A stretch of 52,734 nt of DNA from Candidatus Oleimmundimicrobium sp. (GTDB lineage Bacteria > Actinomycetota > Aquicultoria > UBA3085 > Oleimmundimicrobiaceae). The stretch's first letter is position 1. The number at the start of each line of letters is the position of its first letter. A program made the position numbers and the translations under genes. Below the pieces are notes generated by a model. That model was not told the origin of the DNA, did no database searches, and saw nothing but the letters and a program-made list of their open reading frames with translations. Below, piece by piece: positions 4,447 to 37,305 of this stretch. The DNA lies in contig NZ_JAUSCH010000057.1 of NCBI RefSeq assembly GCF_030651595.1, forward strand, positions 1 to 52,734. The letters are read 5' to 3'.

Positions 4447-4559
4447 TTAATTGCCTCCATGTATTTTTATTACCAATAACCTCATTATACCTGGCGAAAC
4501 AGCATACAGCAAACAAATGTTCTCACGAGGAAGCTAAAACAGTAATCTCTTATAAAAAA

Positions 4560-6273: not shown

Positions 6274-6285
6274 AAAACCCCCTTG

Positions 6286-6361
6286 TAGTCGGTAGTCGGT
6301 AGTCGTTAAGGAATCTCCAATTTGTTCTTGATTCCTAACTACTTACTACTGACTTTCCACT
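6286..6361. repeat. Inverted arrays of 7-bp repeats around a short IR
   Basis: TAGTCGG TAGTCGG TAGTCGT TAAGGAATC ... GATTCCTAA CTACTTA CTACTGA. Confidence 0.65.
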
Positions 6362-6364
6362 TAT

Positions 6365-7924: not shown

Positions 7925-8010
7925 CTTGCCTCTTAGTTGTTAAATAACAAAAGTTTAAAAAATAAAAATGAGAACTAACAGCTTTTATCTGCCAGCCCTT
8001 TACCCTCACC

Positions 8011-8145
8011 AAATAACCCGGCCTTATCGTCAGACCAGTATCTGGTGGCCTCAATAGCCGATAAGCTCTTAACCTGTATATCTTAACCTATATACTGTAC
8101 AGTTTAGCTCTATGCTCTATCTGTCATCAGCCATCTGCCATCAGC
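8011..8145. repeat. AAATAACCCGG...CTCAATAGCC element followed by degenerate 7-bp repeats
   Basis: Ends shared with 17951-18012 and 25482-25540; followed by CTATGCT CTATCTG TCATCAG CCATCTG CCATCAG. Confidence 0.55.
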
Positions 8146-8147
8146 TT

Positions 8148-9305
8148 CTAACCCATCCCAACGCCCTGAGTTCGTTGAAGAAGTTTCCCCTCAGTTTTAA
8201 AAGAGGGAGCAATCATTACTTCTGCTTGTTGAAAATCCTTTATATTTTTATATCCGCAGGTAGCCATTGATGTTCTAAGCGCTCCAAATAAATTCAAAGT
8301 TCCGTCATTTTCGTAAGCGGGACCAAGAAGTATTTCCTTTAAACTTCCGGCAGTACCGGTATAAACTCTGGTTCCACGAGGAAGATCGGGATGAAATGTT
8401 GCCATTCCCCAATGATAACCTCGGCCGGGTGCCTTTTTTGCGCGCGCTAAGGGTGAACCGATCATTACCATGTCAGCCCCGCAAGCAATTGCCTTCGCAA
8501 TATCTCCACCCGTTCTCATCCCCCCATCAGCTATCACTTTGACATACTTTCCGGTTTCATCTAAATAATGTGTTCTCGCAGCTGCAGCATCAGCAATTGC
8601 TGTAGCCTGCGGCACCCCAACTCCTAACACTTGACGAGTAGTACAAGCAGCACCTGGACCAACTCCTACGAGAATCCCCACCGCGCCAGTTCTCATTAAG
8701 TGAAGCGCTGCAGAGTAAGAACAACAACCGCCGACAATAACGGGAATGGAAACTGACTTAATAAACTTGTTTAAATCTAAAGGCTCACTGGTACTGCTCA
8801 CGTGTTCCGCGCTTACCACCGTTCCCTGAATAACCAATATATCTAAGCCTGCGTCCAACACGATTTTGTAATACTTCATTACGCTCTGAGGCGTAAGTGA
8901 AGCAGCAGCGATAACTCCGCCCTTCTTTATCTCTTTAATTCTTTCATCTATCAACTCAGGTTTTATGGGTTCTTTATATATCTCTTGCATTTTATGAGTT
9001 GCTTCTTCTTTAGAAAATTTTGCAATCTCATCAAGAATAGTGGAAGGATTTTCATATTTTGTCTGAATTCCCTCAAGGTTTATTACAGCTAAACCACCTA
9101 GTTTACCCATTTCAATGGCAAGTTTAGGATTAACTACACCGTCCATTGCTGAAGCCATAACCGGTAGATTAAATTTAAAATCACCTATTTTAGTACTAAT
9201 GTTTATATCTTGGGGGTCTCTTGTTCTCCTACTTGGAACTATTGCGACATCATCGAAACCATAAGCTCTTCTTCCAAATTTACCTTTTCCGATTTCAACT
9301 TCCAT
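8148..9305 (-). CDS. guaB3: IMP dehydrogenase family protein GuaB3
   Basis: GRRAYGFDDVAIVPSRRTRDP, IQGTVVSAEH, GVGPGAACTTR (catalytic Cys) and HWGMAT motifs. Confidence 0.9.
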   Translation of the reverse strand: MEVEIGKGKFGRRAYGFDDVAIVPSRRTRDPQDINISTKIGDFKFNLPVMASAMDGVVNPKLAIEMGKLGGLAVINLEGIQTKYENPSTILDEIAKFSKEEATHKMQEIYKEPIKPELIDERIKEIKKGGVIAAASLTPQSVMKYYKIVLDAGLDILVIQGTVVSAEHVSSTSEPLDLNKFIKSVSIPVIVGGCCSYSAALHLMRTGAVGILVGVGPGAACTTRQVLGVGVPQATAIADAAAARTHYLDETGKYVKVIADGGMRTGGDIAKAIACGADMVMIGSPLARAKKAPGRGYHWGMATFHPDLPRGTRVYTGTAGSLKEILLGPAYENDGTLNLFGALRTSMATCGYKNIKDFQQAEVMIAPSFKTEGKLLQRTQGVGMG

Positions 9306-9337
9306 ACAATTGCCTCCTAAAATAAATTAAAATTTTT

Positions 9338-9388
9338 AAAAAATAACCCAGACTCGCTCAGCTTGATAGCTAAGCTAAGTTCTGGGTT
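9338..9388 (-). terminator. Terminator-like hairpin with U-run in the guaB3 leader
   Basis: Minus strand AACCCAGA..CTTAGCTT/AAGCTGAG..TCTGGGTT followed by ATTTTTT. Confidence 0.5.
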
Positions 9389-9435
9389 TGTTTCATTCTT
9401 AAAAATTCCTTCCCATAAAGTTCTAAAATTAATTA

Positions 9436-9464
9436 ATCTTACCCTTCTCTAAAAAAACTGTCAA
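9436..9464 (-). promoter_or_regulatory. Sigma70-type promoter for guaB3-guaA
   Basis: TTGACA-N17-TAAGAT on the minus strand. Confidence 0.65.
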
Positions 9465-9491
9465 GAATAAGAAGGCAACAAACATAAAGTT

Positions 9492-9537
9492 AGATAAAAG
9501 AAAATCCCTTATTAAAATAAGGGATTTTCTTTTATCT
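9492..9537 (-). terminator. Intrinsic terminator after groEL
   Basis: Perfect IR AGATAAAAGAAAATCCCTTATT / AATAAGGGATTTTCTTTTATCT. Confidence 0.8.
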
Positions 9538-9563
9538 TTTTACTAAATTAATTAGAGAAGAGC

Positions 9564-11192
<1,629 letters not shown>

Positions 11193-11216
11193 TTAGCTCT
11201 TTCGCCTCCTTTAAAA

Positions 11217-11507
11217 TTATTTTTTTACGATAGCTAAAATATCGCTTTCTCTTAATATGAGATATTCTTTGCCTTCTACTTTAGTTTCTGTCCCACCGTA
11301 CTTTGAATAAAGGACTTTGTCGCCCTTTTTTACTTCAAGAGGAATTTTTTTGCCACTCTCGTCTCGATTTCCGCTGCCTACGGCAACAATCTCACCCTCT
11401 TGAGGTTTTTCCTTGGCGGTATCTGGAATAACTATTCCGCTTTTGGTTTTCTCCTCGCCTTTATCAGGCTTCACAACCACACGATCTCCTAAAGGCTGTA
11501 AATTCAT
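11217..11507 (-). CDS. groS: Co-chaperonin GroES
   Basis: [23 protein letters not shown]; start set at the second Met, after a GGGGG RBS. Confidence 0.97.
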
Positions 11508-11540
11508 AATCAACCCCCCTATCAATAATATTTATAATTT

Positions 11541-11567
11541 TTAGCACTCTTACAAGTAGAGTGCTAA
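11541..11567. promoter_or_regulatory. CIRCE element (HrcA operator)
   Basis: Perfect TTAGCACTC-N9-GAGTGCTAA upstream of groES. Confidence 0.95.
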
Positions 11568-11583
11568 TTTAATTAACAAAAAT

Positions 11584-11612
11584 ATATTACAACAACAAAA
11601 TTGTAAAATCAA
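11584..11612 (-). promoter_or_regulatory. Sigma70-type promoter for groESL
   Basis: TTGATT-N17-TAATAT just upstream of CIRCE. Confidence 0.65.
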
Positions 11613-11615
11613 CTA

Positions 11616-13154
11616 TCAATAAGCTCGGTTTTTAGAATAAATAATAAAGAGGAAACAACCAAAAGAAATTAAAATGCAACAGTAGGAAAAGAGATTGCCA
11701 AATCTTCTATAAAAACTCTTCCCTTCTTTTAACGTAACTTCGTCTAACAAATATCTTCTTTCAAAGAGAGCCGTTTCTGACAATACTCGTCCTCTTGAAT
11801 CTATAACCGCAGATATGCCGGTGTTTGCCGCTTGAACCACAAAGAAATCATTTTCAACTGCCCGCAGCACCGCCATGGATAGATGCTGCTCCGCTGCTGC
11901 TGTTCTTTTAAACCAACCATCGTTTGTTATAACCACAAGCATCTCCGCTCCTTTTGAAGCTAAACGATGAACAAGAAGAGAATCGGCTGATTCAAAGCAG
12001 ATAACTGTCGAAAACTTTCCTCTATCAGTCTCAAATACCGCCAATTTATCACCGGCTGACATATCCTCGGTAACAGCAGCAACGGCTTTAATATTAGAAA
12101 AAAGCGGTCTTAGGGGAACATATTCTCCAAATGGAACTAAATGTAATTTATCATAATGACCCAATTTTTCACCTTCGGGAGAAAAGATAAAAACGGAATT
12201 AAAATAACAACCCTTTTCTTCACGAAGTCCTCCCACTATAAGATAACTGTTTGTTTCTTTAGCAAGACTTTTAATCTCTTTTAGGTACTCTTTTTCCCTC
12301 ATCAAATAGGCCGGAGTCGCTGTTTCGGGCCAAATTATAAATTGTGGCTTCTTTTCAGCCGCCTTCCGGGCTAACTTAAGATGAATGTTAAAAATATCTT
12401 CTTTTTTCATTGGTTCCCATTTTATTTCCTGCGGAATACTCGGCTGTAAAATTGCGATTTTAGTTGTATTTTCATTTTTTTGAGAGCCCAATAAATTAAA
12501 ATACCCGATCCCTGTCAGCAAAAAAACTCCAATCAATACCACAATTATATTTTTCGAAAAAACCTTAACAGAATTTTTTAAAGACCAGCTTGGGCAAAAA
12601 GCAGATATATAACTTTCGGCAATAAACTCGTTAACAAAAACCAGAAGAAACGATATTCCAAAAACTCCGGCCCATCTTGCAATTTGAATGACAGGAAGAA
12701 AATTATGCTGGCTATAGCCGAGAACCCCCCACGAAAAACCCCAGGGGCCAATTGAACGAATAAATTCTATGGAGACCCAAAGAGCAGGAATAAAAATTAA
12801 TCTAAGCGGTTTTTTAAAATAACTGTGGATAAGTTTTGCTCCCAATCCAAAAAGCAAAATGAAAATGGCTTGGCATAAAATTAGACTAAAGCCCGCAAGT
12901 AATCCAAAAATGAATAGCCAGTAAAGGAGGCCTCCGAAAAAAACTATTCCTGCCATCAAGCTACAAAACAAGGCGCCTTTGAAAGAAGAATGATAAATGG
13001 CAAAAAGTAATGGAGCTAAAGCAAACCAAGCCACAAAAAACCAGTTAAACCTGGGGAAAGCCAAAACCAACAAACATCCCGACATTGCCGCTAAAAATAA
13101 ATTAATAATTCCCAATTTGTTTTTCGTGATTTTTTGAGTATCCATTAATGACAT
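11616..13154 (-). CDS. lnt: Apolipoprotein N-acyltransferase
   Basis: Multiple TM helices plus nitrilase triad motifs IWPETA, YDKLHLVPFGEYVP and ICFES; TNDGWF. Confidence 0.93.
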   Translation of the reverse strand: MSLMDTQKITKNKLGIINLFLAAMSGCLLVLAFPRFNWFFVAWFALAPLLFAIYHSSFKGALFCSLMAGIVFFGGLLYWLFIFGLLAGFSLILCQAIFILLFGLGAKLIHSYFKKPLRLIFIPALWVSIEFIRSIGPWGFSWGVLGYSQHNFLPVIQIARWAGVFGISFLLVFVNEFIAESYISAFCPSWSLKNSVKVFSKNIIVVLIGVFLLTGIGYFNLLGSQKNENTTKIAILQPSIPQEIKWEPMKKEDIFNIHLKLARKAAEKKPQFIIWPETATPAYLMREKEYLKEIKSLAKETNSYLIVGGLREEKGCYFNSVFIFSPEGEKLGHYDKLHLVPFGEYVPLRPLFSNIKAVAAVTEDMSAGDKLAVFETDRGKFSTVICFESADSLLVHRLASKGAEMLVVITNDGWFKRTAAAEQHLSMAVLRAVENDFFVVQAANTGISAVIDSRGRVLSETALFERRYLLDEVTLKEGKSFYRRFGNLFSYCCILISFGCFLFIIYSKNRAY

Positions 13155-13297
13155 AAATTTTATCGCCTTTTAAACTAGATATCCAAATGTGCTTTTAAAA
13201 AATCTTTTCCATAGGGACACAACTTCATAAAAAGGAGAAATCAAAGTTATCCACATTATCCACAGATAAGAGAAATATTAAATTAGTTTACATAAAT

Positions 13298-14356
13298 CTA
13301 AATTTCCTTTACCAAAGACAGGTTTGGATCAGCATTTGCGTCTAGCGAACAAACTATTTCTTCCCCATATTTATCTGCCTTCCGGTAACGATAGTAACCC
13401 ACACAAGCAATCATAGCAGCATTATCGGTACAAAGAGGAAGTGAGGAATAAAAAAGTTCTTTGCCTATCTTGGCTGCTTCCTTTTTTAATCGCTCTCTAA
13501 GAGATTTGTTCGCGGCAACTCCTCCAGCCAAAACTATCTCATCAACAGTTCTTTCTCTGGCTGCTCGAAGAGTTTTATGAATTTGAACATCTATTACCGC
13601 AGCTTGAAAACTTGCGCATAAGTCGGGAATATTTACTTCTTTACCTTCCGCCTTAAGTTTTGAAATATAATTTAAAACGGCTGTCTTGAGACCGCTTAAA
13701 CTAAAATCATAATTATTGGTATTAATCATAGCTCTGGGAAAATTTATGGCCTTAGAATTTCCTTTTGCAGCCAACTTATCTATTATTGGACCACCGGGAT
13801 AACCTAAACCCAAAAACTTAGCTATTTTGTCAAACGCCTCTCCGGCCGCATCATCCAAGGTTTCTCCAAGAACTTCATATTCTCCAAAATCCCCCATATA
13901 AACCAGAGCCGTGTGCCCACCTGAAACAACGAGAGCAATTAAGGGCGGTTTAAGGTTTGGGTGCTCAAGAAAATTAGCCAAAATATGAGCTTCAATATGA
14001 TTTACACATATAAGAGGAAGTTTTGTCGCATAAGAAAGTCCCTTGGCAACACCTAAACCCACCAACAACGCTCCTACCAAACCGGGGCCCCGAGTAACCG
14101 CGATGGCATCAATATCATCCAAGGTAACATTTGCCTCGAGCAACGCCTCTTCTATAACAGGGCTTATGAGTTCCACGTGTTTTCTGGAAGCAATCTCAGG
14201 CACTACCCCGTTAAACTTTTGATGCCATTTAACTTGAGACGCGATAATATTCGACAAAATCCTCTTGCCATCAGCCACAACCGCCGCAGCGGTTTCATCA
14301 CAAGATGTTTCTATTCCTAAAATTAAAGTTTCCTGGCTCAAATCTGTGTTATTCAT
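13298..14356 (-). CDS. tsaD: tRNA t6A threonylcarbamoyltransferase TsaD
   Basis: [29 protein letters not shown] and CTDNAAMI motifs. Confidence 0.97.
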
Positions 14357-14359
14357 ACT

Positions 14360-14881
14360 TTATACCTCATTAAATTTAATAGAATCTCTAATACTTTGTA
14401 ATTTATTTTTATAATTGGCTGAATTTAAGTCATCAACAACCATAATCACCGCATCTTCTCCACTATCAGAATAGTAATTTTTTCTTAAACCTAACACCCG
14501 AAAACCAAATTTTTCATAAAATTTTAAGGCAATTAAGTTTGATTTTCTCAACTCAAGAAAAAGACGCTTGCTCCCTCTATCCTGAGCTGCTCTTATTAAT
14601 TTTAATAAGAGCATACTGCCAATTTTCTTCCGTCTATAGCTTTCATTAATAGCAATGTTTGTTATATGCGCCTCAATTTTGTTAAATATGGCTCCTGCGT
14701 ATCCAATAATCTTGCCACCAACTTTTGCCACAAAATAAGATGCATAATCAGGCTGTCTTAATTGCTCTTTAAAAACTTCAGCCGGCCAGGGGGAGGAAAA
14801 AACTTTTTTCTCAATTTTAACAACCTCTTCGATGTCACTGAAATGCATGGGCGATATCTTAATCCTTCTCCCTTTCAGCAT
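14360..14881 (-). CDS. rimI: Ribosomal-protein alanine N-acetyltransferase RimI
   Basis: GNAT fold: ITNIAI..YRRKKIG, LELRKSN..A..FYEKFGF, RKNYY; tsaB-rimI-tsaD synteny. Confidence 0.9.
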   Translation of the reverse strand: MLKGRRIKISPMHFSDIEEVVKIEKKVFSSPWPAEVFKEQLRQPDYASYFVAKVGGKIIGYAGAIFNKIEAHITNIAINESYRRKKIGSMLLLKLIRAAQDRGSKRLFLELRKSNLIALKFYEKFGFRVLGLRKNYYSDSGEDAVIMVVDDLNSANYKNKLQSIRDSIKFNEV

Positions 14882-14902
14882 TCTCTTTCGCCTTCCATCG
14901 CT

Positions 14903-15613
14903 TTACTCCTGAGCCTGTGTTTTTTTCCACATTTCCTCGGCAATAGGAATTCGAGCATAAATTGGCACAAGCGTTAGATAGTTATCGTATGCACCACTTT
15001 CTAATCTAATAAACGCCAAATCTTTTATACTCGAGGCCTTGGGGCACCACATCTCCGATGAAGCAAAATTTACTTTTCTTATCCGTTTTTTAAAGAGAGA
15101 CCCATATAACTTTAACCCGTCTCCAACTAAAATAATCTCACCATCCTGATTTATGTTGTTTAACTTATCAGATAACTTTTCAGAAGAAAGAGCTTCATAA
15201 TTAGTTAAACGTTGAATCCCTTCATTAGAACATTTATAAAGACAGGAGTAGACTTCTTTCCTCTTGGCATCCACAACAGCACAAACCAGGCCACTATCAA
15301 GACTGAGATTTTTAGCCAGCGCGTCTAAAGAAGAGATGCCAATAATTGGTTTTTTTAAACCCTGGGCAAGACCTTTGGCAATGGAAACGCCAATCCTTAC
15401 CCCTGTAAAAGAACCGGGACCAAGGCCAACCGCAACTACATCAATATCTCTTATATCACAGCCAACATCGGATAATAATGAATCCACTAAAGGCAAAAGC
15501 TTTTGCATATGACCTTGTGGTGCATAAATACTGCGTTCTCCCAAAAGAACATCTTTTTTGCCTATCGCAACCGTGCAGAAATCACTCGACGTATCGAAAG
15601 CAAGTAACAGCAT
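14903..15613 (-). CDS. tsaB: tRNA t6A biosynthesis protein TsaB
   Basis: LAFDTSS, GPGSFTGVRIG, DAKRKEVY; start moved to MLLL after AAAGGAG. Confidence 0.95.
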   Translation of the reverse strand: MLLLAFDTSSDFCTVAIGKKDVLLGERSIYAPQGHMQKLLPLVDSLLSDVGCDIRDIDVVAVGLGPGSFTGVRIGVSIAKGLAQGLKKPIIGISSLDALAKNLSLDSGLVCAVVDAKRKEVYSCLYKCSNEGIQRLTNYEALSSEKLSDKLNNINQDGEIILVGDGLKLYGSLFKKRIRKVNFASSEMWCPKASSIKDLAFIRLESGAYDNYLTLVPIYARIPIAEEMWKKTQAQE

Positions 15614-15865
15614 GAAATCTCCTTTCTTTATTGAAATCATATCAACTGACAACCTTTTTGAGAACTAAAATGTTATATGCCTGTCAAAACTGCTCTTTCA
15701 GCACAGAAAATTACAGCATTTGTAAACATTTTGGTTATAAACTGAATGGCTTTTAAGATAGAGCAGAATGTTATATATTAAATATAGAGAGGTAGTAATT
15801 ATCGGGTTGTTTGTTCTCAAGTTTTTTTGAAAAGATAGCGTTATTAAACTCTATATTTTTAATTT

Positions 15866-16040
15866 GCCGGAAAGACAGATTAAGGTGTTTCGATTGATAA
15901 CTGCATGACGCGGCTTTAGTTACCGAGCCATGCGGAGATTCATTGAAACATTTGGCATAAGGCATTAGCTTAAGGACGGAACTCCATTGCTTGACACCGA
16001 AAAAGGTAGCCAGCAAGTGGAGGTGCCCGCCGACTGGGCC
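15866..16040. ncRNA. Possible structured RNA of unknown family
   Basis: Locally GC-richer intergenic segment with nested complementary stems (15884-88/15994-98, 15903-15/15926-33, 15934-41/15979-85, 16025-28/16036-39); no family recognised. Confidence 0.25.
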
Positions 16041-16562
16041 TCAAATCTCTGAGGTACTCTTGCCGGAGCGACAGTCTTTCCGGCTTTCTTTTAACCATTT
16101 TTTAGCTATTTTTTTCCAACGTCCACCATGAGGTATTATATCTATTTCTCTAATGTTTTCTTCCAAAAGACGTCTAAATTTTATCTCTAAAAAATCCTTA
16201 GGTAAAAGAGGAGCTACTTTATCACCCCACTCAATAACCGTAATACCATCCCCAAAAAAATATTCTTCATAACCAATATCTAACATTTCTTGCAAAGATT
16301 TAAGGCGATAAACATCAAAGTGGTAAAAAGGTAAATTTGATAAGCTCATATATTCTTTAATTAGAGCGAAGGTTGGGCTGGTTATCTTCATATTAATTCT
16401 CAAACCATGCGCTAATCCTTTGACAAAACACGTTTTACCCGCGCCTAAATCACCCGTTAAGCTAATAACATCTCCCGCTTGAAGAAATTGTGCTAATCCT
16501 TCAGCTAGCTTTTGAGTTTCAGAAACAGATTTTGTTAAAACAATAAGCTCGTTTCCTTTCAC
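16041..16562 (-). CDS. tsaE: tRNA t6A biosynthesis ATPase TsaE
   Basis: GDLGAGKT, SPTF, HFDVYRL and IEW motifs. Confidence 0.96.
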   Translation of the reverse strand: MKGNELIVLTKSVSETQKLAEGLAQFLQAGDVISLTGDLGAGKTCFVKGLAHGLRINMKITSPTFALIKEYMSLSNLPFYHFDVYRLKSLQEMLDIGYEEYFFGDGITVIEWGDKVAPLLPKDFLEIKFRRLLEENIREIDIIPHGGRWKKIAKKWLKESRKDCRSGKSTSEI

Positions 16563-16569
16563 TCTTCTC

Positions 16570-17172
16570 CTAAAAAAACATTAACTGTTCTGTAGTTTCT
16601 TCTTTTTGAGCCAATTTATCAACTTTGCTGCTTAACAACTCTTTAAGTATTAAAAAATCGGCCTTAAGCTTGTCGAGGTTGGTTCTTTGATATAAAGCCG
16701 CAGCTGGGTGATAGATAGGAAATATATAATAGCCGTTACCGTCAAAACACTTGCCCCGAACCTTTGAAATGGGAACATTTTTATCCAAAATAACCTGAGT
16801 CGCAAACCTACCAAGCGTGCAAACAACCTTGGGTTTAATTATCTCTATCTGTTTCAATAAAAATGGTTTACATGTTTCAATTTCACTCGGTAAAGGATCT
16901 CTGTTTTTGGGAGGCCTACATTTTAAAACGTTGGCAATATAAATTTGGTCTCTTACAAGTCCAATTGAGTCCAATAATTTATCAAGTAGCTTCCCCGCGG
17001 CACCCACAAAAGGTTTTCCCTGTATGTCCTCATTGCACCCAGGTGCTTCTCCCACAAACACCAAATCAGCATTTTCATTACCAGCTCCAAAAACAATGTT
17101 TGTCCTCGTTTTACCAAGAGAACACCTCTGACAATCTTTTAACTCTTCATAAAACTCCGCTAAAGTTTCCAC
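16570..17172 (-). CDS. Family-4 (Fe-S) uracil-DNA glycosylase
   Basis: [27 protein letters not shown] and YHPAA motifs; start reassigned to GTG at 17172 after AAGGAG because the upstream extension belongs to the FmdB gene. Confidence 0.92.
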
Positions 17173-17197
17173 CGAAAAGAAACACTCCTTTCTTAAT

Positions 17198-17413
17198 TTA
17201 ACTACAGCCATCACAACTGGAGGCCGAACAAGTGCCTCAGCTCGAAGCAACTCCGCCATTGGTCTCTCCTTTGAGACCAAAGCTGGAAAAGAGCTTTAAT
17301 ATATCCTTTGAGCCACAATGAGGGCATTTTAAATCATTGTTTTCTTTGCCCACACCAACGAGTAACTCAAATTTTTTATTACATTTCGAACATCTATATT
17401 CAAAAATAGGCAT
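17198..17413 (-). CDS. FmdB-family zinc-ribbon protein with in-frame UGA (candidate selenoprotein), 71 aa
   Basis: Manual translation MPIFEYRCSKCNKKFELLVGVGKENNDLKCPHCGSKDILKLFSSFGLKGETNGGVASS-UGA-GTCSASSCDGCS-UAA; AGGTGA RBS; UGA at 17239-17237; absent from the ORF track (58 aa before UGA). Confidence 0.85.
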
Positions 17414-17600
17414 CTTATCACCTTTTCAATTCTATCAATTTAACAAAAAAGCTGCAATTGATAGATTCCCGCGCCTTTAAATTATTAAATCTTCAATTTA
17501 AAAAACTATTAATTTAGCCATTTTTAAACTTTTAGGATTATAATTTATCTAAAGCTAAATAGACAATCAAATTAATTACAATAACTTAAGGAGGCAAACC

Positions 17601-17900
17601 GTGTCTTTTGAAAAGAAAAGAGAGATAAAAGTCAACTTTCCTGAAAGCATGCAAGGCGGAGTCTATACAAACAATACAATTATAACTCACACCAAAGAAG
17701 AGTTTATTATGGATTTTCTTATGGTTGCTCCCCCTTCTGGAGCAGTAACGGCCCGCGTCATCACCAGCCCGGGACACATGAAACGCATTCTTGCAGCTTT
17801 ACAAGAAAACATCTCTAAATATGAACAAAAATTTGGGGAAATCAAAGCTTCAGCGGCACCTATGGAAACTATCGGTTTTGTTCCGCCAACGAAGCATTAA
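17601..17900 (+). CDS. DUF3467 family protein
   Basis: GVYTN...HTKEEFIMDF...ARVITSPGHMKRILAALQENI..YE..FGEI; AGGAGG RBS. Confidence 0.85.
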   Translation: MSFEKKREIKVNFPESMQGGVYTNNTIITHTKEEFIMDFLMVAPPSGAVTARVITSPGHMKRILAALQENISKYEQKFGEIKASAAPMETIGFVPPTKH

Positions 17901-17950
17901 TTGATGGTTTAAGTGTTAGGAGAACGGATTAAAATAAACTACCACTAGCC

Positions 17951-18103
17951 AAATAGCCCGGCTTTACATCCTCGATAGCCAATGGCTCGCTCACTGCCAT
18001 TCGCTCAATAGCTAATAGTTCAAACCATCTGCTATATGCCATTCGCCATCAGCTAGTTGCCATATCATTTAAATACAAACTCTGGTCACCAGCTACCAGC
18101 CGC
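17951..18103. repeat. ~60-bp repeat element plus 7-bp repeat tract
   Basis: 17951-18012 closely matches 25482-25540; followed by CCATCTG CTATATG CCATTCG CCATCAG. Confidence 0.7.
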
Positions 18104-18104
18104 C

Positions 18105-18376
18105 AGGAAAATTAAAAGTATAAACTTTCATTGTTTTTATTTTTTAAACCCCGTGGGCCGGGTAGACAGCGACCCTCCAAAGGCGAGCAAGCCCTCCTGT
18201 GGCGGGTAAACATATGAGCACATTAACCTAATTTATATACCATATCATTTTTAGGCGTAAAAATAGGTTGTTCAGGAAGTGAGTTGAAGCTGTCTGACCC
18301 CGGAGTGAAACAAGGGGGAGTTCTGCCTGGTACAGGCCCGCATCGGGGGCAGGCGATCCAGAGCTGTTATCCGACC
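18105..18376 (+). repeat. Structured intergenic repeat module (MITE/REPIN-like)
   Basis: 18105-18179 matches 36395-36469 at 71/75 nt by eye; similarity continues through CATATGAGCAC and GGTTGTTCAGG..GAAGCTGT. Confidence 0.85.
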
Positions 18377-18391
18377 CACAAAAAAGAAATC

Positions 18392-18913
18392 TCAATCCAG
18401 GTATTCAACAACATCTTCGATTGGCATTCTGCTTGGTTTTACATTCTTACGAACAGGATATCCCAATGGAATTATCGCCAAAGGTTTTAAATTTTTGGGT
18501 AAGTCTAACAACTCTGCCACATTGTCTTCATAAAAAGCTCCTACCCAACAAACTCCAAGCCCTTCAGAGCAAGCTGCTAAAAGAATGTTTTCTGTTGCAG
18601 CAGCAGCGTCTTGAATTGCATAGAGTTCTCTTCCTCGAGTACCATATGCTTCACCACAAACATCTAAATTAGAACAAACAATGATGACTACAGGCGCCTC
18701 TGCTATAAATTGCTGGTTAATAGCGGCTGTTGTAAGCTTGTCTTTTAACTGAGGATTTCTTACAACCCAAAATCTCCAAGGCTGGACATCCCCGGCAGAC
18801 GGGGCCTGGCAAGCAGCCTCAAGAATTTTGTTAACAAGCTCAAGTGAAACATCTCTTGTTTCATCAAAAGACCTTGTGCTGCATCTTTTGTAAATTGCTT
18901 TATAGACATCCAT
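18392..18913 (-). CDS. Nitroreductase family protein
   Basis: IYKRCSTRSF, APSAGDVQPWRF and GLGVCWVG motifs. Confidence 0.9.
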   Translation of the reverse strand: MDVYKAIYKRCSTRSFDETRDVSLELVNKILEAACQAPSAGDVQPWRFWVVRNPQLKDKLTTAAINQQFIAEAPVVIIVCSNLDVCGEAYGTRGRELYAIQDAAAATENILLAACSEGLGVCWVGAFYEDNVAELLDLPKNLKPLAIIPLGYPVRKNVKPSRMPIEDVVEYLD

Positions 18914-18936
18914 AATATTCTCCTTAAAAATTGTTT

Positions 18937-20403
18937 TTATTTTTTAGTGTAATCCTCTATGTATTTTTCTGCAAAAACCAAAGCTTCTTCTTTTGTCGAG
19001 ATTTTACCCTCCGCCCTGGCTTCTTCAATTTCCTCAAGTAATCTTCCAATGAGCTTTCCAGGCTCTAAGTTAAGTTCTTTTATTAAATCATGGCCCGTCA
19101 ACAAAGGCAGTATAGGTTTTTCAATAGTTGAAAAATAGATTTTCATAATATTTTTAACAAAATCTTCATGACGATTAAGGGATTCTTTGGTAGAAAGCGG
19201 CCCTAAAGTAGCCCCGCGATCTGCTAAGGAAAGAAGTAAAATTTCAACAGTTTCATCTCCGGCATCTCTTAAAAATCTTCTTATGGCTTTGTCAGATGAA
19301 CCTTTTTCTTTTGAAAGAAAGCCCGGCCTCATATGTTCGGCAATTAGTTTACCGACAATTTTTGTGCCCTCCTTGCTAATTTTTAAACGCTTGCAAATTC
19401 CATTGGCTATTTTGAAGCTAATCTCGGAATGATGATAGAAACACACTGTTTCTGAAGAATTAACAGATTTAGTTTTCGGTTTTCCGACATCGTGAAGCAA
19501 AACAGCAAATTTAAGGGGTACCACTCGATTAAACTCTCCCTGAAATGGCTGATTTATATGACTTAAAATCTTTTCATGTTCACTCGGAAAAATCTTTTTT
19601 AAATTAGCTAAGATCTCCTCGAGATTTTTTAAAGTAAGCAAAGTATGGCCCCAAACGTCGAGATGATGATAGTTGTTTTGAGTAACACCCTTCATCTCCT
19701 CAACTTCAGGAAGAACAAACTTGATGATATCTAACTTGCCCAGTAGCTCAATTGCTTTGTAAAAATGAGGAAGAGCAAAAATCAAAAATAGTTCCCGTTG
19801 TAACCTTTCAGCAGAAACATTTTTAATTAAATTAACGGACTCTTTCAAAAAAGAAACCGTTTTTAATTCAATGTTAAAACCAAGTTCAACAGATAATCTA
19901 ACTGCTCTCAAAATCCTTAAGGGGTCCTCTTTAAAAGCTTCAGGGCAAACTGCCGAGATATTTTTATTCTTGATATCACGCAAACCCTCGAAAATATCGA
20001 TAACTTGAATAGGCATTGTCTCCTCTGCCAATTTTTTGGCGTCAACAGCGAGAGAATTTACCGTAAAATCTCTCTGCTTCAAATTATCCTCTATTTTCCC
20101 CTGCATAGAGCAGACATCAATTTTTCTTAATTCCTCGTTTTTTACAACTATCCGTGCTACCCCTTTATTTCCTAAAAGAAAAAAACTACCGCCAAGAACA
20201 TCTACAAGCTTCCTGCAGTATTTTTCGACATCACCCACAACAACTAAATCAATATCATTTCCTGTTCGACCAAGAACTTTATCTCTTATATAACCGCCCA
20301 CTAAGTAGGCCTGGTTGGGATTATCTTTCACAAACTCTAAAACTCTCAAAAGAAGCTCATCGCCTGCCGATAAATCACGTAAATTAATTCTGGATATTCC
20401 CAT
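18937..20403 (-). CDS. Class II tRNA nucleotidyltransferase / poly(A) polymerase family protein with HD domain (CC-adding-like architecture)
   Basis: VGGYIRD, DIDL, RDFTVNS, EDPLRILRA, SAER, HH.DVWGH and LLHDVGK motifs. Confidence 0.88.
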   Translation of the reverse strand: MGISRINLRDLSAGDELLLRVLEFVKDNPNQAYLVGGYIRDKVLGRTGNDIDLVVVGDVEKYCRKLVDVLGGSFFLLGNKGVARIVVKNEELRKIDVCSMQGKIEDNLKQRDFTVNSLAVDAKKLAEETMPIQVIDIFEGLRDIKNKNISAVCPEAFKEDPLRILRAVRLSVELGFNIELKTVSFLKESVNLIKNVSAERLQRELFLIFALPHFYKAIELLGKLDIIKFVLPEVEEMKGVTQNNYHHLDVWGHTLLTLKNLEEILANLKKIFPSEHEKILSHINQPFQGEFNRVVPLKFAVLLHDVGKPKTKSVNSSETVCFYHHSEISFKIANGICKRLKISKEGTKIVGKLIAEHMRPGFLSKEKGSSDKAIRRFLRDAGDETVEILLLSLADRGATLGPLSTKESLNRHEDFVKNIMKIYFSTIEKPILPLLTGHDLIKELNLEPGKLIGRLLEEIEEARAEGKISTKEEALVFAEKYIEDYTKK

Positions 20404-20433
20404 TTAATTAGCACCGTATCCTATCAATTTTTG

Positions 20434-20856
20434 TTAACTTCTCTCCCAATTGACCCGAACAAACTTCTCGCCTTCAAGCCATTGAATATCGAGCTTGCCA
20501 GAGAATGCCCTTTCAAACTCCCTGCCAATAAGTTCGGCCAGAGCTTTGTCAGTTGTTTCAATTGAAAAACCTTCCGGCGTTTCTCCCATCTTAAAAATTC
20601 TTGCAGCCACGTTCCTTTTTTTCTTCTTTTCAACAGTATTGTGTATCAAATTTAAGGCCTCGTCTTTATGGTTTTTTATAAAATCTCCCTTGATAAGAAC
20701 CACTCCATCGACCATTTTCTTTTTTAATTTTTCACAACCCAAACATAAACCCATCTCAACATCGGATTTCTTGCTTAGCTTTTCATAAAGATTCTCATCG
20801 TACACCCACTTGCGCCCATCAAATACCGCTTCGCAACTTGAACATAATTTCATCAT
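20434..20856 (-). CDS. BCAM0308 / NMD3-like zinc-binding protein
   Basis: CSSC..V..GRKW, CLGC, G.V.IKG.F, ETT...LA..IG and VRV.W pattern. Confidence 0.65.
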   Translation of the reverse strand: MMKLCSSCEAVFDGRKWVYDENLYEKLSKKSDVEMGLCLGCEKLKKKMVDGVVLIKGDFIKNHKDEALNLIHNTVEKKKKRNVAARIFKMGETPEGFSIETTDKALAELIGREFERAFSGKLDIQWLEGEKFVRVNWERS

Positions 20857-20857
20857 T

Positions 20858-21385
20858 TTAAATCCCCCTTTTCAATATGTTAATAATCTTTTCGGGCATT
20901 TTTTCTCGATTTTCATATGATAATTCAAGAATCATTACATCTTTTCTGGCTTTTATTTGCTCAATAAATTCATTTTTAATCTTTCCGATGGTCGCCAGGA
21001 CAAGATTCGGTGAGTTTAAAATATTTTCTACAACACGTTTAAAATTATCAGAGTGTAGCTCCATCTTCCCAATTTCATCAATTATAATCAAACTATTGTC
21101 GTCAGAAATTCCTTCAAGAGCTAAAACTCCAATTCTTTCAAATTCATCAATATTTACCCCATATCTCCCTACTTTAATGGGACCAGGAAAATTCTCGTGG
21201 GCAAGAATCCCTTCCTTAAGGTTATCTGTATCACCAATTACTTTTATTTTAAAACCTCTTCTTCTACCTACTTCTCTAATTTCTTCGGTATAAAATCCAA
21301 CCACGCGTCCGGAGTAAAGCGTTAAAACCTTCTTTATTAAAGTAGTTTTTCCAACTCCGGGAGAACTAGTTATAAGAATATTCAA
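20858..21385 (-). CDS. NTPase_1 / THEP1-type nucleoside-triphosphatase
   Basis: SPGVGKTT, GFYTEEIRE..RRGF, VGRYGV and IIDEIGKMEL; start moved to TTG after AGGAG. Confidence 0.9.
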   Translation of the reverse strand: MNILITSSPGVGKTTLIKKVLTLYSGRVVGFYTEEIREVGRRRGFKIKVIGDTDNLKEGILAHENFPGPIKVGRYGVNIDEFERIGVLALEGISDDNSLIIIDEIGKMELHSDNFKRVVENILNSPNLVLATIGKIKNEFIEQIKARKDVMILELSYENREKMPEKIINILKRGI

Positions 21386-21396
21386 AAAAACTCCTA

Positions 21397-21897
21397 TCAA
21401 TCAACAATTTTAATCTCTAAATCTAATATGATTTCTCTTAACTCATCTGAAGTTGAGTAACCTTTAACCACATAACTTCCAACCGGAACTCGCTCTCCTT
21501 CAAAATTCTCCTGAGGCCAGACGACTTCATAAACAAGCTCTTCGCCGGGCTCCAGCTTTTTTTCCCGCAAAATCATGGCAAAAACTTTCCCGTATGACCA
21601 GCGCCAAACTTCATTTCCGGAATCATCATTCACTAAAAATTCATATTCTTGCCCCGAAGTAAATGAGAGTTTTTGAGGATTATCACCCGTATTCTTAATA
21701 TTTAATTTCAGAGGAACTTCCTCACCCGAAAAAAACGTTGACTTCGAAATTGAAAACTTAACTTCAAATCCTTTTAATTGTTGATAAGACACCGGAGAAA
21801 CCATATCAGTAGATTTTTTAGAAACACACCCGCCTATAAGTAATAAGGTGAGGAGAGTTAAAGTTATAAAAATAAGATGTAATTTTTTAAGGGTCAT
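21397..21897 (-). CDS. Lipoprotein with BsuPI (intracellular proteinase inhibitor-like) Ig domain
   Basis: Signal peptide ending IGG-C; LSFTSGQEYEF...GNEVWRWS.GK.F motif. Confidence 0.75.
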   Translation of the reverse strand: MTLKKLHLIFITLTLLTLLLIGGCVSKKSTDMVSPVSYQQLKGFEVKFSISKSTFFSGEEVPLKLNIKNTGDNPQKLSFTSGQEYEFLVNDDSGNEVWRWSYGKVFAMILREKKLEPGEELVYEVVWPQENFEGERVPVGSYVVKGYSTSDELREIILDLEIKIVD

Positions 21898-31199: not shown

Positions 31200-31790
31200 C
31201 TATTTCCTTCATTTTCTTGCGTGCCCAAGAAAACGGAAGCAAAAGAAGGGCAGCCGATCATTTTTTAACGGCTCCAAAATAACGGTTGTTCAGGCGCCTG
31301 CAGAACTCGCCGGGCTAAACTATATCCTTCCCTTTGGCTTTTTGCAAAAAGTCAAAGCTTCCAACTACGTTGTAAATCGGATATAAGCCTAACTCAAACA
31401 GCTTCGGCTTATTCCCTGAACAACCTATTTTTACACCTAAAAATGATATGGCGTTTAAATAAAAAGGCGTACTCAGAGTCGCTCTAAGCAAGAGCCACGG
31501 GGTATTAAAACCCAAAAGAAAAAACCTTTTATACGTTCCTACTGGCAGGCACGGTGCCGCAGATATTCAAACTTCCTTTGCTATACGGCGTGCTCATATG
31601 CCTGCCCGCCTCTGGAGGGTCGCCTACAAACAACCCACCTGGGTTTTAAAAACTAAAAATAAAAGACAGCTTCGGCTTATTTCCCGAACAACCTATTCCT
31701 CCGCCAAAAAATGATATGGCGTTTTAAATTAGGTTAATGTACTCATACGCTTGCCAGTAAACGCAGTAGGCATGGCCGGGGAAACCAGGG
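31200..31790 (-). repeat. Mosaic of three structured repeat modules
   Basis: 31203-31454 is the reverse complement of ~36564-36833; ~31590-31660 matches the GCGACCCTCC module; ~31663-31745 matches ~18213-18294. Confidence 0.85.
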
Positions 31791-31804: not shown

Positions 31805-33013
31805 CTAACAAACAGGATATTTGCCCTCGATAAGCTCTTGGCAAAATTCACTAATTGTAGAGAGTTCATGGTCAACTACATCTTTGATATCACCTGAAAT
31901 AGATTCAAGAGATACGCCCTTTTTTAAAACAACCTGAACCGAAGCCACCTTGGGCCTGTCTATAGGGCTTCCAATTTGGCTGCAAAGCCAAACATATACT
32001 TCTCTTATTCCCTCAACTCGAGTGTAAATTTCGTTGGCAATCTTATGTGTGAGAAAATTATATATTTTCCCCACATGGCTCACCGGATTCTTTCCGGCTG
32101 CCGCTTCAGTGCCCATCGGTCTGTTTAAGGAAATTACCCCGTTTACTCGATTCCCTCTACCCACTTCCCCGGAATCGGCATCTTCAGCCGACGTGCCCAA
32201 AACGGAAAGATAGATCCCATTCATTCCTCTTCCCCGAGTATCCAAAGTATTTAGCTCAGCATTTATTCTTTCCATTACATCAAAATTTCTCAAGAAATTC
32301 CCAAGATCTTCGGCTATCTCATCCTTTTTTGAAAAATAGTCTTTTTCACTCTTTATAAACCTAGAAATAAGCGGCATCGCCACAGTTAAATTAAGCTCAT
32401 TTTCCACTCGATAACCCATTACCTTTACATCTTCACCAGTTTCAGGAAATCTTTCTTTAAAATCTGAAGAGTTTAAATAGTTCTCCGTTTTTAAAACAAT
32501 CGACTCAGTTTTGGTAAGAGGAGCGTAACCTACAGCAGCCGACGTATCATTAGCCGGCAAGAGTTTATCGCTTCTTAAAAAAATCCCCGATAATTCCTCG
32601 GAGCTGGGATGGAGTTCAGAAAAATACTGCAAATCCTTTTCGGAATCCACAAATCTTAAGTTATCTGCTATCCAATCTTTGGCTGCTCGAACTGCTATCT
32701 CTTCAACCGGTATCTTTATGCCCTTGGCTTCAAAGGTCGCCCTATCTCCAATATAAAGCTTCATCGGACTTTTTACCCGTCCACCGCCAAATTTTCTCTC
32801 TACCTGGCCCGCGACTAAAAGCCCCTTATCGATATTGTGATGAAGAATTCTGCCAAAATTTTTTTGATACTCCTTCGATAGAACCACCGATATTTTTTCC
32901 ATGACCGCGTCACAAATTGAATCAGGATGGCCCTTGCCCTTTCTCTCTACTATCTCAACTTGGTGCTCAAAAACAGGCAAGCCGCTTAAACCCTCAATCA
33001 CAATATTTCGCAT
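31805..33013 (-). CDS. mat: Archaeal-type methionine adenosyltransferase (SAM synthetase)
   Basis: EIVERKGKGHPDSICD, HHNIDK, ANDTS.AVGYAP, GEDVKVMG, D.G.VGRGNR.NG.I and GKNPVSHVGKIYN motifs. Confidence 0.9.
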   Translation of the reverse strand: MRNIVIEGLSGLPVFEHQVEIVERKGKGHPDSICDAVMEKISVVLSKEYQKNFGRILHHNIDKGLLVAGQVERKFGGGRVKSPMKLYIGDRATFEAKGIKIPVEEIAVRAAKDWIADNLRFVDSEKDLQYFSELHPSSEELSGIFLRSDKLLPANDTSAAVGYAPLTKTESIVLKTENYLNSSDFKERFPETGEDVKVMGYRVENELNLTVAMPLISRFIKSEKDYFSKKDEIAEDLGNFLRNFDVMERINAELNTLDTRGRGMNGIYLSVLGTSAEDADSGEVGRGNRVNGVISLNRPMGTEAAAGKNPVSHVGKIYNFLTHKIANEIYTRVEGIREVYVWLCSQIGSPIDRPKVASVQVVLKKGVSLESISGDIKDVVDHELSTISEFCQELIEGKYPVC

Positions 33014-36169: not shown

Positions 36170-36370
36170 CGTATAACCTCAAAAGTAAATTCCCGCTCCG
36201 ATGTTATCGGGATGACTTTCTTATCCTCAACGCAAGCAGTGTTCTGCCCACTGCGAAAATCATTTTTTAGTTAAATCTTAAGCCAGTACCTGGAATATTA
36301 TATCATTAAAAGCAGCTATCAGCTGCCAATCGTTTTAAATGAAAAAATAAGAAATAAAAAAGAAAAACGA

Positions 36371-36391
36371 CCTGCCTGCCGGTAGGCACGG
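36371..36391 (+). mobile_element. 21-bp micro-insertion, copy 2
   Basis: CCTGCCTGCCGGTAGGCACGG, preceded by GA. Confidence 0.65.
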
Positions 36392-36469
36392 TATAGGAAA
36401 ATTAAAAGTATAAACTTTCATTGTTTTTAGTTTTTAACCCCCGTGGGCCAGGTGGACAGCGACCCTCCA

Positions 36470-36514
36470 CCTGCCCGCCAATGCCTAACGGCATAATAGG
36501 CGTAGGCAGGCGGG
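36470..36514 (+). mobile_element. 45-bp hairpin insertion within the repeat module
   Basis: Absent from the 18105 copy at CCCTCCA|AAGGCG; no target duplication. Confidence 0.65.
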
Positions 36515-36801
36515 AAGGCGGGCAGGCCCTCCTGCGGCGGGTAAACATATGAGCACGTTTTATACGCCATATCATTTTTAGGCGTAAAAATAGGTTGTTC
36601 AGGAAATAAGCCGAAGCTGTTTGAGCCAGGTTTATATCCGACTGACAAAGTAAGTTGGAAGTTTTGGCTTTTTAATGCCAAAGGGAAGGATATAGTTTAG
36701 CCTGGCGAGTTCTGTAGGCGCCTGAACAACCGTATATTTTGGAGCCGTTCAAAAAATGATCGGCCGTCTTTCTTTTGCTTCGTTTTCTTGGACGAGCAAG
36801 A

Positions 36802-36822
36802 CCTGCCTGCCGGTAGGCACGG
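36802..36822 (+). mobile_element. 21-bp micro-insertion, copy 3
   Basis: Filled GCAAGA|insert|AAATGAAGG versus empty site at 31214/31215 in the sister repeat. Confidence 0.75.
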
Positions 36823-36889
36823 AAATGAAGGAAGTAAAGTTTCGAAATAGGAGAATCGACTAAGTAAATTGGTAATTTATAGCACTAAC

Positions 36890-36920
36890 AAAAAAGCAAA
36901 AGCTATTAAGCTTTTGCTTT
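36890..36920 (-). terminator. Intrinsic terminator after rplQ
   Basis: IR AAAGCAAAAGCT/AGCTTTTGCTTT with a T-run on the minus strand. Confidence 0.7.
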
Positions 36921-36954
36921 AAAATAATATATTTTTACTAACTAATGGCCAATT

Positions 36955-37305
36955 TTAAACCAATTCAATTATAACCATTGATGCAGCGTCGCCTTGTCTT
37001 GGACCAAGCTTTAAAATTCGCGAATAACCACCGTTTCTTTCAGCAAAGCGAGGGGCAATTTCCGTAAAGAGTTTATCGGTCAGTCCTCTATCGTTCAACG
37101 TAGCAAGAACTTGCCTGCGAGAGTGCAAATCTCCTTTTTTGCTCAAAGTTATTACTTTATCCAACATGGTTCGCACTTCTTTTGCGCGAGCCTCGGTTGT
37201 TTTTATCCTCTCATGATTGATTATTTCCTTCGTCAATCCCACCATTAAGGCCTTCTGGTGGCTGGCATCAGTTGCCAGTTTCCTGCCTTTATTGCGATGC
37301 CGCAT
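36955..37305 (-). CDS. rplQ: 50S ribosomal protein L17
   Basis: [18 protein letters not shown] and GGYSRI motifs. Confidence 0.98.

Follow-up and report, generated by a model that had tools for sequence, protein, structure and literature searches.

The 21-mer palindrome CCTGCCTGCCGGTAGGCACGG, referred to here as H, seems to act as a tiny mobile element with a spread that crosses phyla. New H copies are clean insertions between two adjacent bases, in either orientation, in unrelated contexts and in many phyla. Moreover, the 21-nt copies persist in genes as 7-codon insertions, while related 20-nt copies are largely kept out of ORFs. We consider it moderately probable that H is a non-autonomous micro-element and that it belongs, as a 21-nt variant, to the 20-nt GC-rich palindrome family CCTGCCTGCCGG(C/T)AGGCAGG. 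A broader reading is advanced tentatively, namely, that the 20–21-nt palindromes are a self-propagating DNA parasite across phyla, that they are moved by ubiquitous host enzymes or an undiscovered broad-host-range enzyme, and that H became fixed through a length divisible by three.

The window, i.e., the whole stretch of 52,734 nt that was analysed, is an ordinary piece of chromosome from a groundwater bacterium; its GC content is ~38%, and almost every gene lies on the minus strand. It contains the ribosomal-protein, secY, adk, map, rpoA, and rplQ operon, then ecfA-ecfA'-ecfT and usp, and further genes for SAM synthetase, rplM-rpsI, glmS, glmM, alr, tsaBDE, groEL, guaAB, and others. Among the 40 larger window ORFs scanned, all housekeeping or unannotated, no transposase was found. 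The closest of the fetched loci was that of the MAG CSMAG_2342 (labelled Actinomycetes), which is syntenic with 13090–20922 at ~75% nucleotide identity. The features of the window that concern H are as follows.

1424–1479, plus strand: REP-like host unit of copy 1, from head GAGATTGCCACG to tail CTCGCAATGGC, in a cluster of such units at ~1420–1660
1436–1456, minus strand: H copy 1, exact match, between the head GAGATTGCCACG and the body TCGCTTACGCTCCTCGCAATGGC of the REP-like unit
18231–18303: partial copy of the repeat M2
31214..31215: empty site in the inverted sister of M2, with the minus strand reading GCAAGA/AAATGAAGG (the slash marks the junction)
~31215–31460, inverted: sister of M2
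31532–31554, plus strand: degenerate H-like sequence, 17/23 positions matching, weak evidence
36371–36391, plus strand: H copy 2, exact match, 3 nt outside the left end of a mosaic repeat
36470–36526, plus strand: related palindrome halves CCTGCCCGCC ... GGCGGGCAGG, 37 nt apart
36556–36835, plus strand: host repeat M2, ~280 nt, high copy number, strongly structured
36802–36822, plus strand: H copy 3, exact match, clean insertion in M2

The three identical copies reported in a first-pass annotation of this DNA were all recovered, compared with 0 expected from 100 dinucleotide-preserving shuffles of the window, and no further H-like match was found in the window at ≤3 mismatches. H starts with CCTG and ends with ACGG, and GTAG occurs only internally, at H positions 12–15. 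The two halves, of 10–11 nt each, are inverted repeats of one another. As single-stranded DNA, H folded at -4.1 kcal/mol (z = -0.9 vs shuffles), which is a weak hairpin, and the "hairpin" may not be the property that counts for H.

Copy 3 was compared with the sister of its host repeat. The filled site reads GCAAGA/AAATGAAGGAAG, or more widely ...GGACGAGCAAGA-H-AAATGAAGGAAGT, while the inverted sister, as its reverse complement, reads GCAAGA/AAATGAAGGAAA at 31214/31215, or more widely ...GGGCACGCAAGA/AAATGAAGGAAAT. The boundaries of copy 3 cannot be shifted by one base; therefore, the two sites differ by exactly 21 nt, cleanly inserted or deleted, with 0 target bases duplicated or missing, and the precise empty site claimed by the first-pass annotation was fixed to the base. 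The DNA fold of M2 was -49.6 kcal/mol (z = -5.7), and Rfam gave nothing at the gathering score across the window, with only noise (E ~1) around the M2 repeat.

Both junctions of copy 3 were crossed by unitigs of two independent Logan assemblies from two studies, covering 36770–36826 at a depth of 72 in X1 (genome ~14) and 36772–36836 at a depth of 186 in X2 (genome ~55–64). Contigs of the empty form, running from 36801 straight into AAATGAAGGA, were found in X1, X2, and X4. In public groundwater and subsurface runs, the contig depth of M2 was 10–30x genome depth, and the filled M2 site stood at 3–5x genome depth. The filled form accounted for approximately a quarter to half of the M2 copies, and both forms coexist. 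As the filled M2 site is multi-copy, part of the within-genome spread of H is hitch-hiking on M2 or repeated hits. H entered one M2 copy, and it was then carried by M2 or the same site was struck again. A second filled and empty pair was found across genomes, with TGCCCG-H-CCTCTGGAGGG in one locus (L040) vs TGCCCG/CCTCTGGAGGG at window positions 31605–31620. Contig comparison reported no 21-nt indels between the populations X1–X4 over 1–20000 and 36200–37000, excised or circular forms of H were not seen, and the Logan contigs obtained from the exact rplQ protein ended at the repeat and gave no orthologous empty site.

In the case of copy 1, H splits the REP-like unit directly after its 12-nt head, as had been proposed, and uninterrupted units lie nearby at 1561–1572 (minus strand) and 1590–1630. 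Logan contigs of X1 and of X2 both enter this copy. In unrelated genomes, the REP-like unit bears H or the 20-mer at other positions (L044 and L109; L142 and L160). Copies 1 and 3 are passengers within other repeats. The view of H as a parasite of other repeats held well, with copies in the REP-like unit, in M2, in hairpin loops, and in H itself, and so did its description as one of the smallest non-autonomous mobile units and as a precise insertion without target duplication. The degenerate relative placed at 31534–31554 was left on weaker ground. Its 17/23 matching positions are spread over 31532–31554, it sits in a different module of the mosaic, and its minus strand continues into TATAAAAGG, just as copy 2 continues into TATAGG; its sequence makes an old H copy plausible, if weakly so. 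Within the interval of the related palindrome halves, a segment of ~45 nt (36470–36514) is missing from the sister copies, and Logan contigs skip 45–49 nt there.

The exact-match search in genomes and related MAGs that had been suggested found H widely. It was present at ≥120 loci, that is, at least 120, in at least 93 assemblies (CSMAG_2342 included) of at least about 18 named phylum-level groups (GTDB, one genome per species). The scan covered 596 Gb, for which ~0.3 chance matches of a 21-mer are expected by our own calculation from 4^21, and the phylum labels are those of the submitters. Among the matches listed, H-bearing assemblies belonged to Patescibacteria (25), Bacteroidota including Ignavibacteria (18), Chloroflexota (7), Actinomycetota (5), Pseudomonadota (5), Planctomycetota (4), Acidobacteriota (4), and Margulisiibacteriota (3). 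The other groups listed were Nitrospirota, Omnitrophota, Bdellovibrionota, Spirochaetota, Latescibacterota, Bacillota, WOR-3, Tectomicrobia, Stahlbacteria, and a 'delta proteobacterium'. Carriers included the cultured isolate Flavipsychrobacter stenotrophus RB1R16, the single-cell genome SAG AM-312-K06, and closed long-read MAG chromosomes. The GC content of the loci ranged from 32 to 72%, and the flanks around the 127 copies were unrelated (both among the matches listed), which speaks against the derivation of all copies from duplication of a larger unit. The window lineage and CSMAG_2342 had many copies, while most other genomes had 1–4 among the matches listed.

H was also found at homologous positions in pairs of species (L052/L087, L006/L079, and L013/L062) and in five T9SS C-terminal domains of Ignavibacteria, in which it always lay between the Q and A codons of the RLQAG motif. 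The ±90-nt flanks were only 53–67% identical, while H was identical at 21/21 positions. Under neutral co-divergence, an intact H beside such diverged flanks has a chance of ≤2e-4 per pair, a figure obtained with an exact-match search, which favours pairs with intact H and is skewed to undiverged copies, so that the apparent conservation of H is overstated. Either the same sites were hit repeatedly, or H was homogenised or selected. Phages were considered as the vector and rejected, with only 3 H matches in 2.9 million viral contigs. In one of these viral matches, H lies in a TnpB-like zinc ribbon (L121), which was read as one more in-gene insertion.

Among the matches listed, approximately 40% of H copies were located within long ORFs, in 5/6 frames, the missing frame being the one that reads TAG. 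The peptides encoded by in-gene H were LPAGRHG, CLPVGT(A), PCLPAGR, RAYRQAG, and AVPTGRQ. In the UvrA of L065, H corresponded to an exact 7-residue gap vs the solved structures 3pih and 2r6f (…tlqvkygNLPAGRHgkniadvl… vs …tleity-------kgknisdil…). Similarly, the IleRS of L048 showed a 6-residue gap at H vs solved structures, and further in-gene copies were found in HsdR (L031), ValRS (L113), and a DEAD-box helicase (L115). In L019, H in the stop frame and a (CCTG)n run truncate an IS481-like transposase. The two inverted H copies of this locus were considered and set aside, as they bracket a HEPN/nucleotidyltransferase pair and no transposase.

H is a rare variant of the commoner 20-nt family. 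A metagenome scan was conducted with two irregular positions left open (pattern CCTGCCTGCCGGNAGGCANGG), and the first 120 metagenome loci listed contained H in 0 cases, the perfect palindrome CCTGCCTGCCGGCAGGCAGG (C-variant) in 70, and CCTGCCTGCCGGTAGGCAGG (T-variant) in 42. The 20-mers resembled H in their sites: they shared its hairpin loops and REP-like units and were likewise nested in themselves. After in-silico removal of the element, 72/101 H sites were within ORFs of ≥150 aa (controls 0.87), compared with 20/59 sites of the 20-mers (controls 0.84), and the difference in ORF tolerance was significant (Fisher p = 6e-6). The simplest reading is that insertion is largely blind to coding status, that selection purges frame-breaking 20-mers, and that the 21-nt variant survives. 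An odd T and an extra C, always identically placed, are common to all H copies. The shared extra C indicates a true-breeding lineage, not independent frame-restoring mutations, and true breeding in turn implies copying from existing copies. Insertions of the 20-mer into tRNA D-loops were also considered and rejected, because the 'tRNAs' were 5' fragments and removal of the element restored no tRNA.

The first-pass annotation had placed the insertions next to a short fixed motif, always after GA, and had ascribed them to HUH (IS200/IS605, RAYT) transposition. GA does precede all three window copies, but it precedes only 8/127 of the copies listed elsewhere, so the pattern in the window is either chance or a preference confined to this genome. 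Over these 127 copies listed, the base before H was G in 54% and the base after was C in 69%, giving a weak YG/C preference and a faint CTG/C..T pattern, and neither a fixed 4–5-nt motif 5' of H nor a conserved tetranucleotide was found. The HUH assignment had rested on the GA motif and is not supported. A preference for structured targets was found: after in-silico removal of H, the junction was bracketed by a perfect stem of ≥7 bp in 10% of cases vs 1.8% of controls under the non-coding mask (p = 0.008) and in 7% vs 0.4% under the coding mask (p = 2e-6). The hairpin loops hit by H included those of a tRNA-adjacent terminator (L004), the widespread CCCTCTCCC...GGGAGAGGG hairpin (L010), the GGATTCCCG...CGGGAATGAC units (L107), and the GATTGC...GCAATGAC units (L044 and L109). 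In four loci (L095, L112, L041, and L116), H lay within H, after position 9. Overall, extruded-hairpin loops, H's own loop included, were struck several times more often than controls. Tandem copies also occurred, with four in L014 and a variant beside H in L123. No target-site duplication was present at any resolvable H junction, and orientation showed no bias relative to transcription beyond the missing stop frame.

A single-strand transposase of the HUH/Y1 type (IS200/IS605 TnpA or RAYT), reading the hairpin and inserting 3' of a short fixed motif, is nevertheless the alternative that survives best, although we regard it as unlikely. Such an enzyme would suit the insertions without target-site duplication, the imperfect hairpin with its extrahelical base, and the favouring of single-stranded hairpin loops as targets. 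Moreover, the junctions tend to restore G/C on both sides, as cleavage at one short site would give. However, the flank is not fixed, and H is without distinct left and right ends. The IS200/IS605 family typically shows a strong lagging-strand bias, whereas the orientation of H relative to the sign of local GC skew was 22:36 (p = 0.09), the 8-kb skew being a poor proxy for replication direction. A crude motif scan of 4234 ORFs found no Y1 gene within ~4 kb of ~250 copies, and none was seen among the 40 window ORFs scanned, so that the suggested search for Y1/HUH genes near the copies gave nothing. As for RAYT, REPs are lineage-specific and carry a terminal GTAG or CGTC tag (PMC3733652), while the GTAG of H is internal only.

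The ORFs of ≥90 aa in the 120 loci listed were clustered in search of a gene linked to H, and no H-linked family was found; the recurring families near H were only generic, namely, response regulators and kinases, class I aminoacyl-tRNA synthetases, and ABC ATPases. In the non-autonomous micro-element that we prefer, new copies would be templated from existing copies and not from a built-in template of the enzyme, and movement would occur in trans by an enzyme not encoded beside H. Integration would be of a break-and-join type, preferring YG/C and DNA able to become single-stranded. A founder copy would arrive by horizontal transfer and then be amplified in the genome; the window lineage and its relative CSMAG_2342 are H-rich. 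Copy 2 of the window, with the T-run described below, may by co-option act as a weak secondary terminator behind the rplQ operon. On the broader reading, the length of H, divisible by three, together with the absence of stop codons from 5/6 frames, would allow it to persist in essential genes.

Templated copying is also at the centre of another explanation, to which we give little credence. A short cDNA or oligonucleotide of an existing H would enter a nick or break, by ligation or priming, while DNA is being repaired or replicated. The work would be done by a reverse transcriptase, primase-polymerase, or end-joining enzyme, with no dedicated transposase. The blunt insertions with nothing duplicated or lost, the very weak target specificity, and the presence of both orientations are consistent with such patches. 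In addition, tandem arrays and (CCTG)n extensions (L014, L019, and L123) suggest slippage, and universal host enzymes would account for function across many phyla. However, random break repair would not enrich hairpin loops, would not repeat the same position of homologues, as in the Ignavibacteria T9SS C-terminal domains, and would not always give units of exactly full length. Ku/LigD end joining is commonly lacking in CPR bacteria, to which many carriers belong. Microhomology template switching, considered as a variant of this explanation for the CTG/C context, was rejected because it predicts units shortened by the microhomology length and none was seen.

It is very improbable that H is not independently mobile and is instead a functional motif, i.e., a terminator stem or a protein-binding palindrome, that is selected and spread via larger repeats or gene conversion. 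Copy 2 offers some evidence in its favour. On the minus (transcribed) strand, this copy is followed by a T-run, GGTCGTTTTTCTTTTTT, and 36388–36373 (minus strand) plus GGTCGTTTTT has a weak terminator-like score with 5 base pairs. The strong rplQ terminator at 36920–36893 (minus strand) lies upstream of copy 2 on the minus strand, and the T-run is absent after copies 1 and 3. The unit AAAAACGA-H-TATAG of copy 2 was found again in CSMAG_2342 (L086), whose units of this kind often have H nested in H, giving a 42-nt hairpin of -12 kcal/mol. The multi-copy filled M2 site and the invariance of H beside diverging homologous flanks would also fit a functional motif. However, the flanks of the 127 copies listed are unrelated, a 7-codon insertion in UvrA, IleRS, HsdR, or ValRS cannot be a terminator, and convergence on an irregular 21-mer in at least about 18 phyla is not credible given ~0.3 chance matches per 596 Gb. 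The functional-motif reading is largely refuted by the in-frame gene insertions. Lastly, a technical artefact, whether an adapter or linker or a fold-back of the assembly at the palindrome, can hardly be entertained. Many matches do lie near contig ends, and palindromes can confuse assemblers. However, any repeat is expected to produce contig ends, and the flanks of H run on without interruption and in frame, with no target sequence lost. H occurs in assemblies of Illumina, long-read, single-cell, and isolate data, produced over many years by many laboratories, and the same site was found in two independent studies of the window organism. The isolate, single-cell, and closed chromosomes together with the filled and empty unitigs rule out a library or assembler artefact.

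Mobile DNA is normally held to require two or more recognisable ends, along with a transposase that is linked or lineage-specific, and its sequence is expected to decay between phyla. H keeps every base, its odd bulge included, in Patescibacteria, Bacteroidota, Chloroflexota, Acidobacteriota, Planctomycetota, Pseudomonadota, and others. The surprising parts are this identity across phyla and the in-frame residence in essential genes. The cross-phylum identity, the in-frame hits in essential genes, and the commoner 20-nt family are points beyond the first-pass annotation. If the broader reading is true, the 20–21-nt family would be the smallest horizontally spreading replicator known. If these results hold up, H would define how small a genetic parasite with horizontal spread can be. 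It would also point to a new DNA break-and-join activity common in environmental bacteria, and it would explain the recurrent 7-residue inserts (LPAGRHG, AVPTGRQ, RAYRQAG, and CLPVGTA) and many "hypothetical" metagenome ORFs. In practice, H can serve to mark contig breaks, and also recent exchange of DNA, in communities of groundwater and soil.

H was compared with known systems. A literature text search found the 21-mer, its complement, the 20-mer, the 12-mer cores, and the peptide LPAGRHG in no paper on such an element, and two 12-mer matches were rejected as mammalian primers. A keyword search for very small mobile palindromes returned only REP, REPIN, and SDR (small dispersed repeat) literature.

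Among palindromic elements residing in genes, those of Rickettsia are 100–150 bp long and confined to Rickettsia and relatives; as reportedly described by Ogata et al. in Science in 2000, they are inserted in frame in protein-coding genes, where the peptide is tolerated. H is like them as selfish palindromic DNA that lies in frame in genes, and it differs in being 21 bp long and in spanning phyla. In AT-rich genomes, the GC clusters and byp elements of yeast mitochondria form short insertions that are GC-rich and palindromic; they occur inside genes and nested in one another. They are organellar and eukaryotic, have variable lengths and other sequences, and some need translational bypass. H resembles them in gene-dwelling and nesting, but it is bacterial and is read through as 7 codons. 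Compared with a MITE, a derivative of a DDE transposase, H has inverted-repeat halves but no target-site duplication. With IS200/IS605 elements and PATEs, H shares the lack of target-site duplication, the hairpin, and the affinity for single-stranded DNA. IS200/IS605 elements have distinct left and right ends (>100 bp in total) a fixed 4–5-nt target 5' of the left end, and a strong strand bias, whereas H is without distinct ends or a fixed target and shows no clear strand bias by the rough 8-kb skew proxy.

H is like REPs and REPINs in being a short GC-rich imperfect palindrome in intergenic mosaics with a possible terminator role. REPs are species- or genus-specific and extragenic, have the terminal tag, usually form inverted doublets, and flank a RAYT gene (PMC3733652), and REPINs are non-autonomous and moved in trans (PMC3116915). 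Unlike these, H is a singlet that lacks a terminal tag and a RAYT gene nearby, and it extends across phyla and into genes.

The small dispersed repeats (SDRs) of heterocystous cyanobacteria offer a further comparison. In the account of Elhai et al. in 2008, they are said to be 21–27 nt long, dispersed, in several cases palindromic, and sometimes tandem or nested, and they were reportedly judged mobile from filled and empty sites. To our knowledge, no enzyme is known for them. As far as this account goes, H is like them in having a unit of ~21–27 nt, in dispersal, in filled and empty sites, and in nesting and tandem arrangement, a likeness by behaviour only. On the same account, SDRs belong to one cyanobacterial lineage and have other sequences, whereas H and its 20-nt relatives are identical across at least about 18 phylum-level groups, and H lies in frame inside essential genes. 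The SDRs of Elhai et al. 2008 are cited in PMC3116915, PMC2884548, and PMC3733652. One of the passages speaks of repeats 'some 20 bp long ... which might be mobile' (PMC2884548), and another calls them REP-like and lacking terminal tags (PMC3733652). Going by those passages, the class of very small mobile repeats is formally described (Elhai et al. 2008), while the H sequence is not, and small dispersed repeats, as those passages depict them, are by behaviour the closest described class to H.

H, the 21-bp palindrome found three times in the window, was also located within genes of other genomes. In the case of a Planctomycetaceae contig (L014, 2228-2311), four copies of H were arranged head-to-tail near the contig end, and this tandem array lay within a long open frame, where it was read as (AVPTGRQ)4. 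In CSMAG_2342, the closest public relative among the fetched loci, an IS481-like (rve) transposase gene was cut short by H and a (CCTG)n run (L019, 4480-4515; ORFs 4486-5408, minus strand; TAG frame), so a conventional IS was also disrupted by this micro-element. More H-like peptides (PCLPAGR and CPAYRQAG) were present in the upstream ORF. Only three viral-contig matches to H were obtained. In one of these (L121, IMG/VR, 5420-5440), a TnpB/OrfB-like ORF had H inserted in frame within its C-terminal zinc-ribbon region and read ...TSRTCPDC[RAYRQAG]G...FQCIACG...DADTVGALNI.

Five Ignavibacteria T9SS C-terminal sorting domains (L005, L017, L059, L063, and L064) contained H at the identical codon junction, RLQ/AG, with flanks of only about 60% identity. 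The shared junction reflects either a hotspot, as ACCTG/CTTG at the insertion junction resembles the H 5' end, or conserved ancestral copies of H.

REP-like units comparable to those of the window were detected in four other public loci (L044, L109, L142, and L160).
About 1420-1660: cluster of REP-like units, GAGATTGC(C/T)(A/T)CG...CTCGCAATGAC
Near-identical copies of these units were carried by unrelated phyla, so further small modules, in addition to H, appear to be common to different phyla.

Other features of the window were as follows.
9492-9537: perfect 22-nt inverted repeat with a 2-nt spacer, AGATAAAAGAAAATCCCTTATT / AATAAGGGATTTTCTTTTATCT, just downstream of groEL
20434-20856, minus strand: NMD3-family domain gene
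20858-21400, minus strand: NTPase_1 gene (PF03266)
31805-33013, minus strand: archaeal-type SAM synthetase (PF01941, E = 4e-164)
The inverted repeat is probably a bidirectional terminator. The three genes sit in a bacterial housekeeping region, and their complement is unusual given the Actinomycetes label of the nearest MAG.

The host repeat of the third H copy, M2, is adjoined by a second dispersed unit, M1, built as CCCCGTGGGCC...GCGACCCTCCA...GGGTAAACATATGAGCAC.
1-67, inverted: M1
18146-18225: M1
31590-31660, inverted: M1
36437-36556: M1
36470-36514: GC-rich palindromic segment of ~45 nt, CCTGCCCGCCAATGCCTAACGGCATAATAGGCGTAGGCAGGCGGG
36556-36835, plus strand: M2, ~280 nt
About 31215-31460: M2, sister copy in inverted orientation
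18231-18303: M2, partial copy
An M1-related unit in an unrelated MAG (L040) carried H between TGCCCG and CCTCTGGAGGG, and the same site was empty in the window (31605-31620). The GC-rich segment is a second insertion polymorphism; it was missing in the sister M1 copies, and some Logan contigs, which are independent public assemblies, skipped 45-49 nt there. Together with the GGCGGGCAGG that follows, this segment resembles a 20-mer relative split in two; the 20-mers are the commoner palindromes of which H is a variant.

Within M2, GGTTGTTCAGG...CCTGAACAACC forms a long-range inverted repeat; M2 also contained a UUCG-type loop, and its DNA fold gave z = -5.7. Its depth in public runs was 10-30 times the genome depth. 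No Rfam family covers M2, which could be an unknown structured RNA or a MITE-like element.
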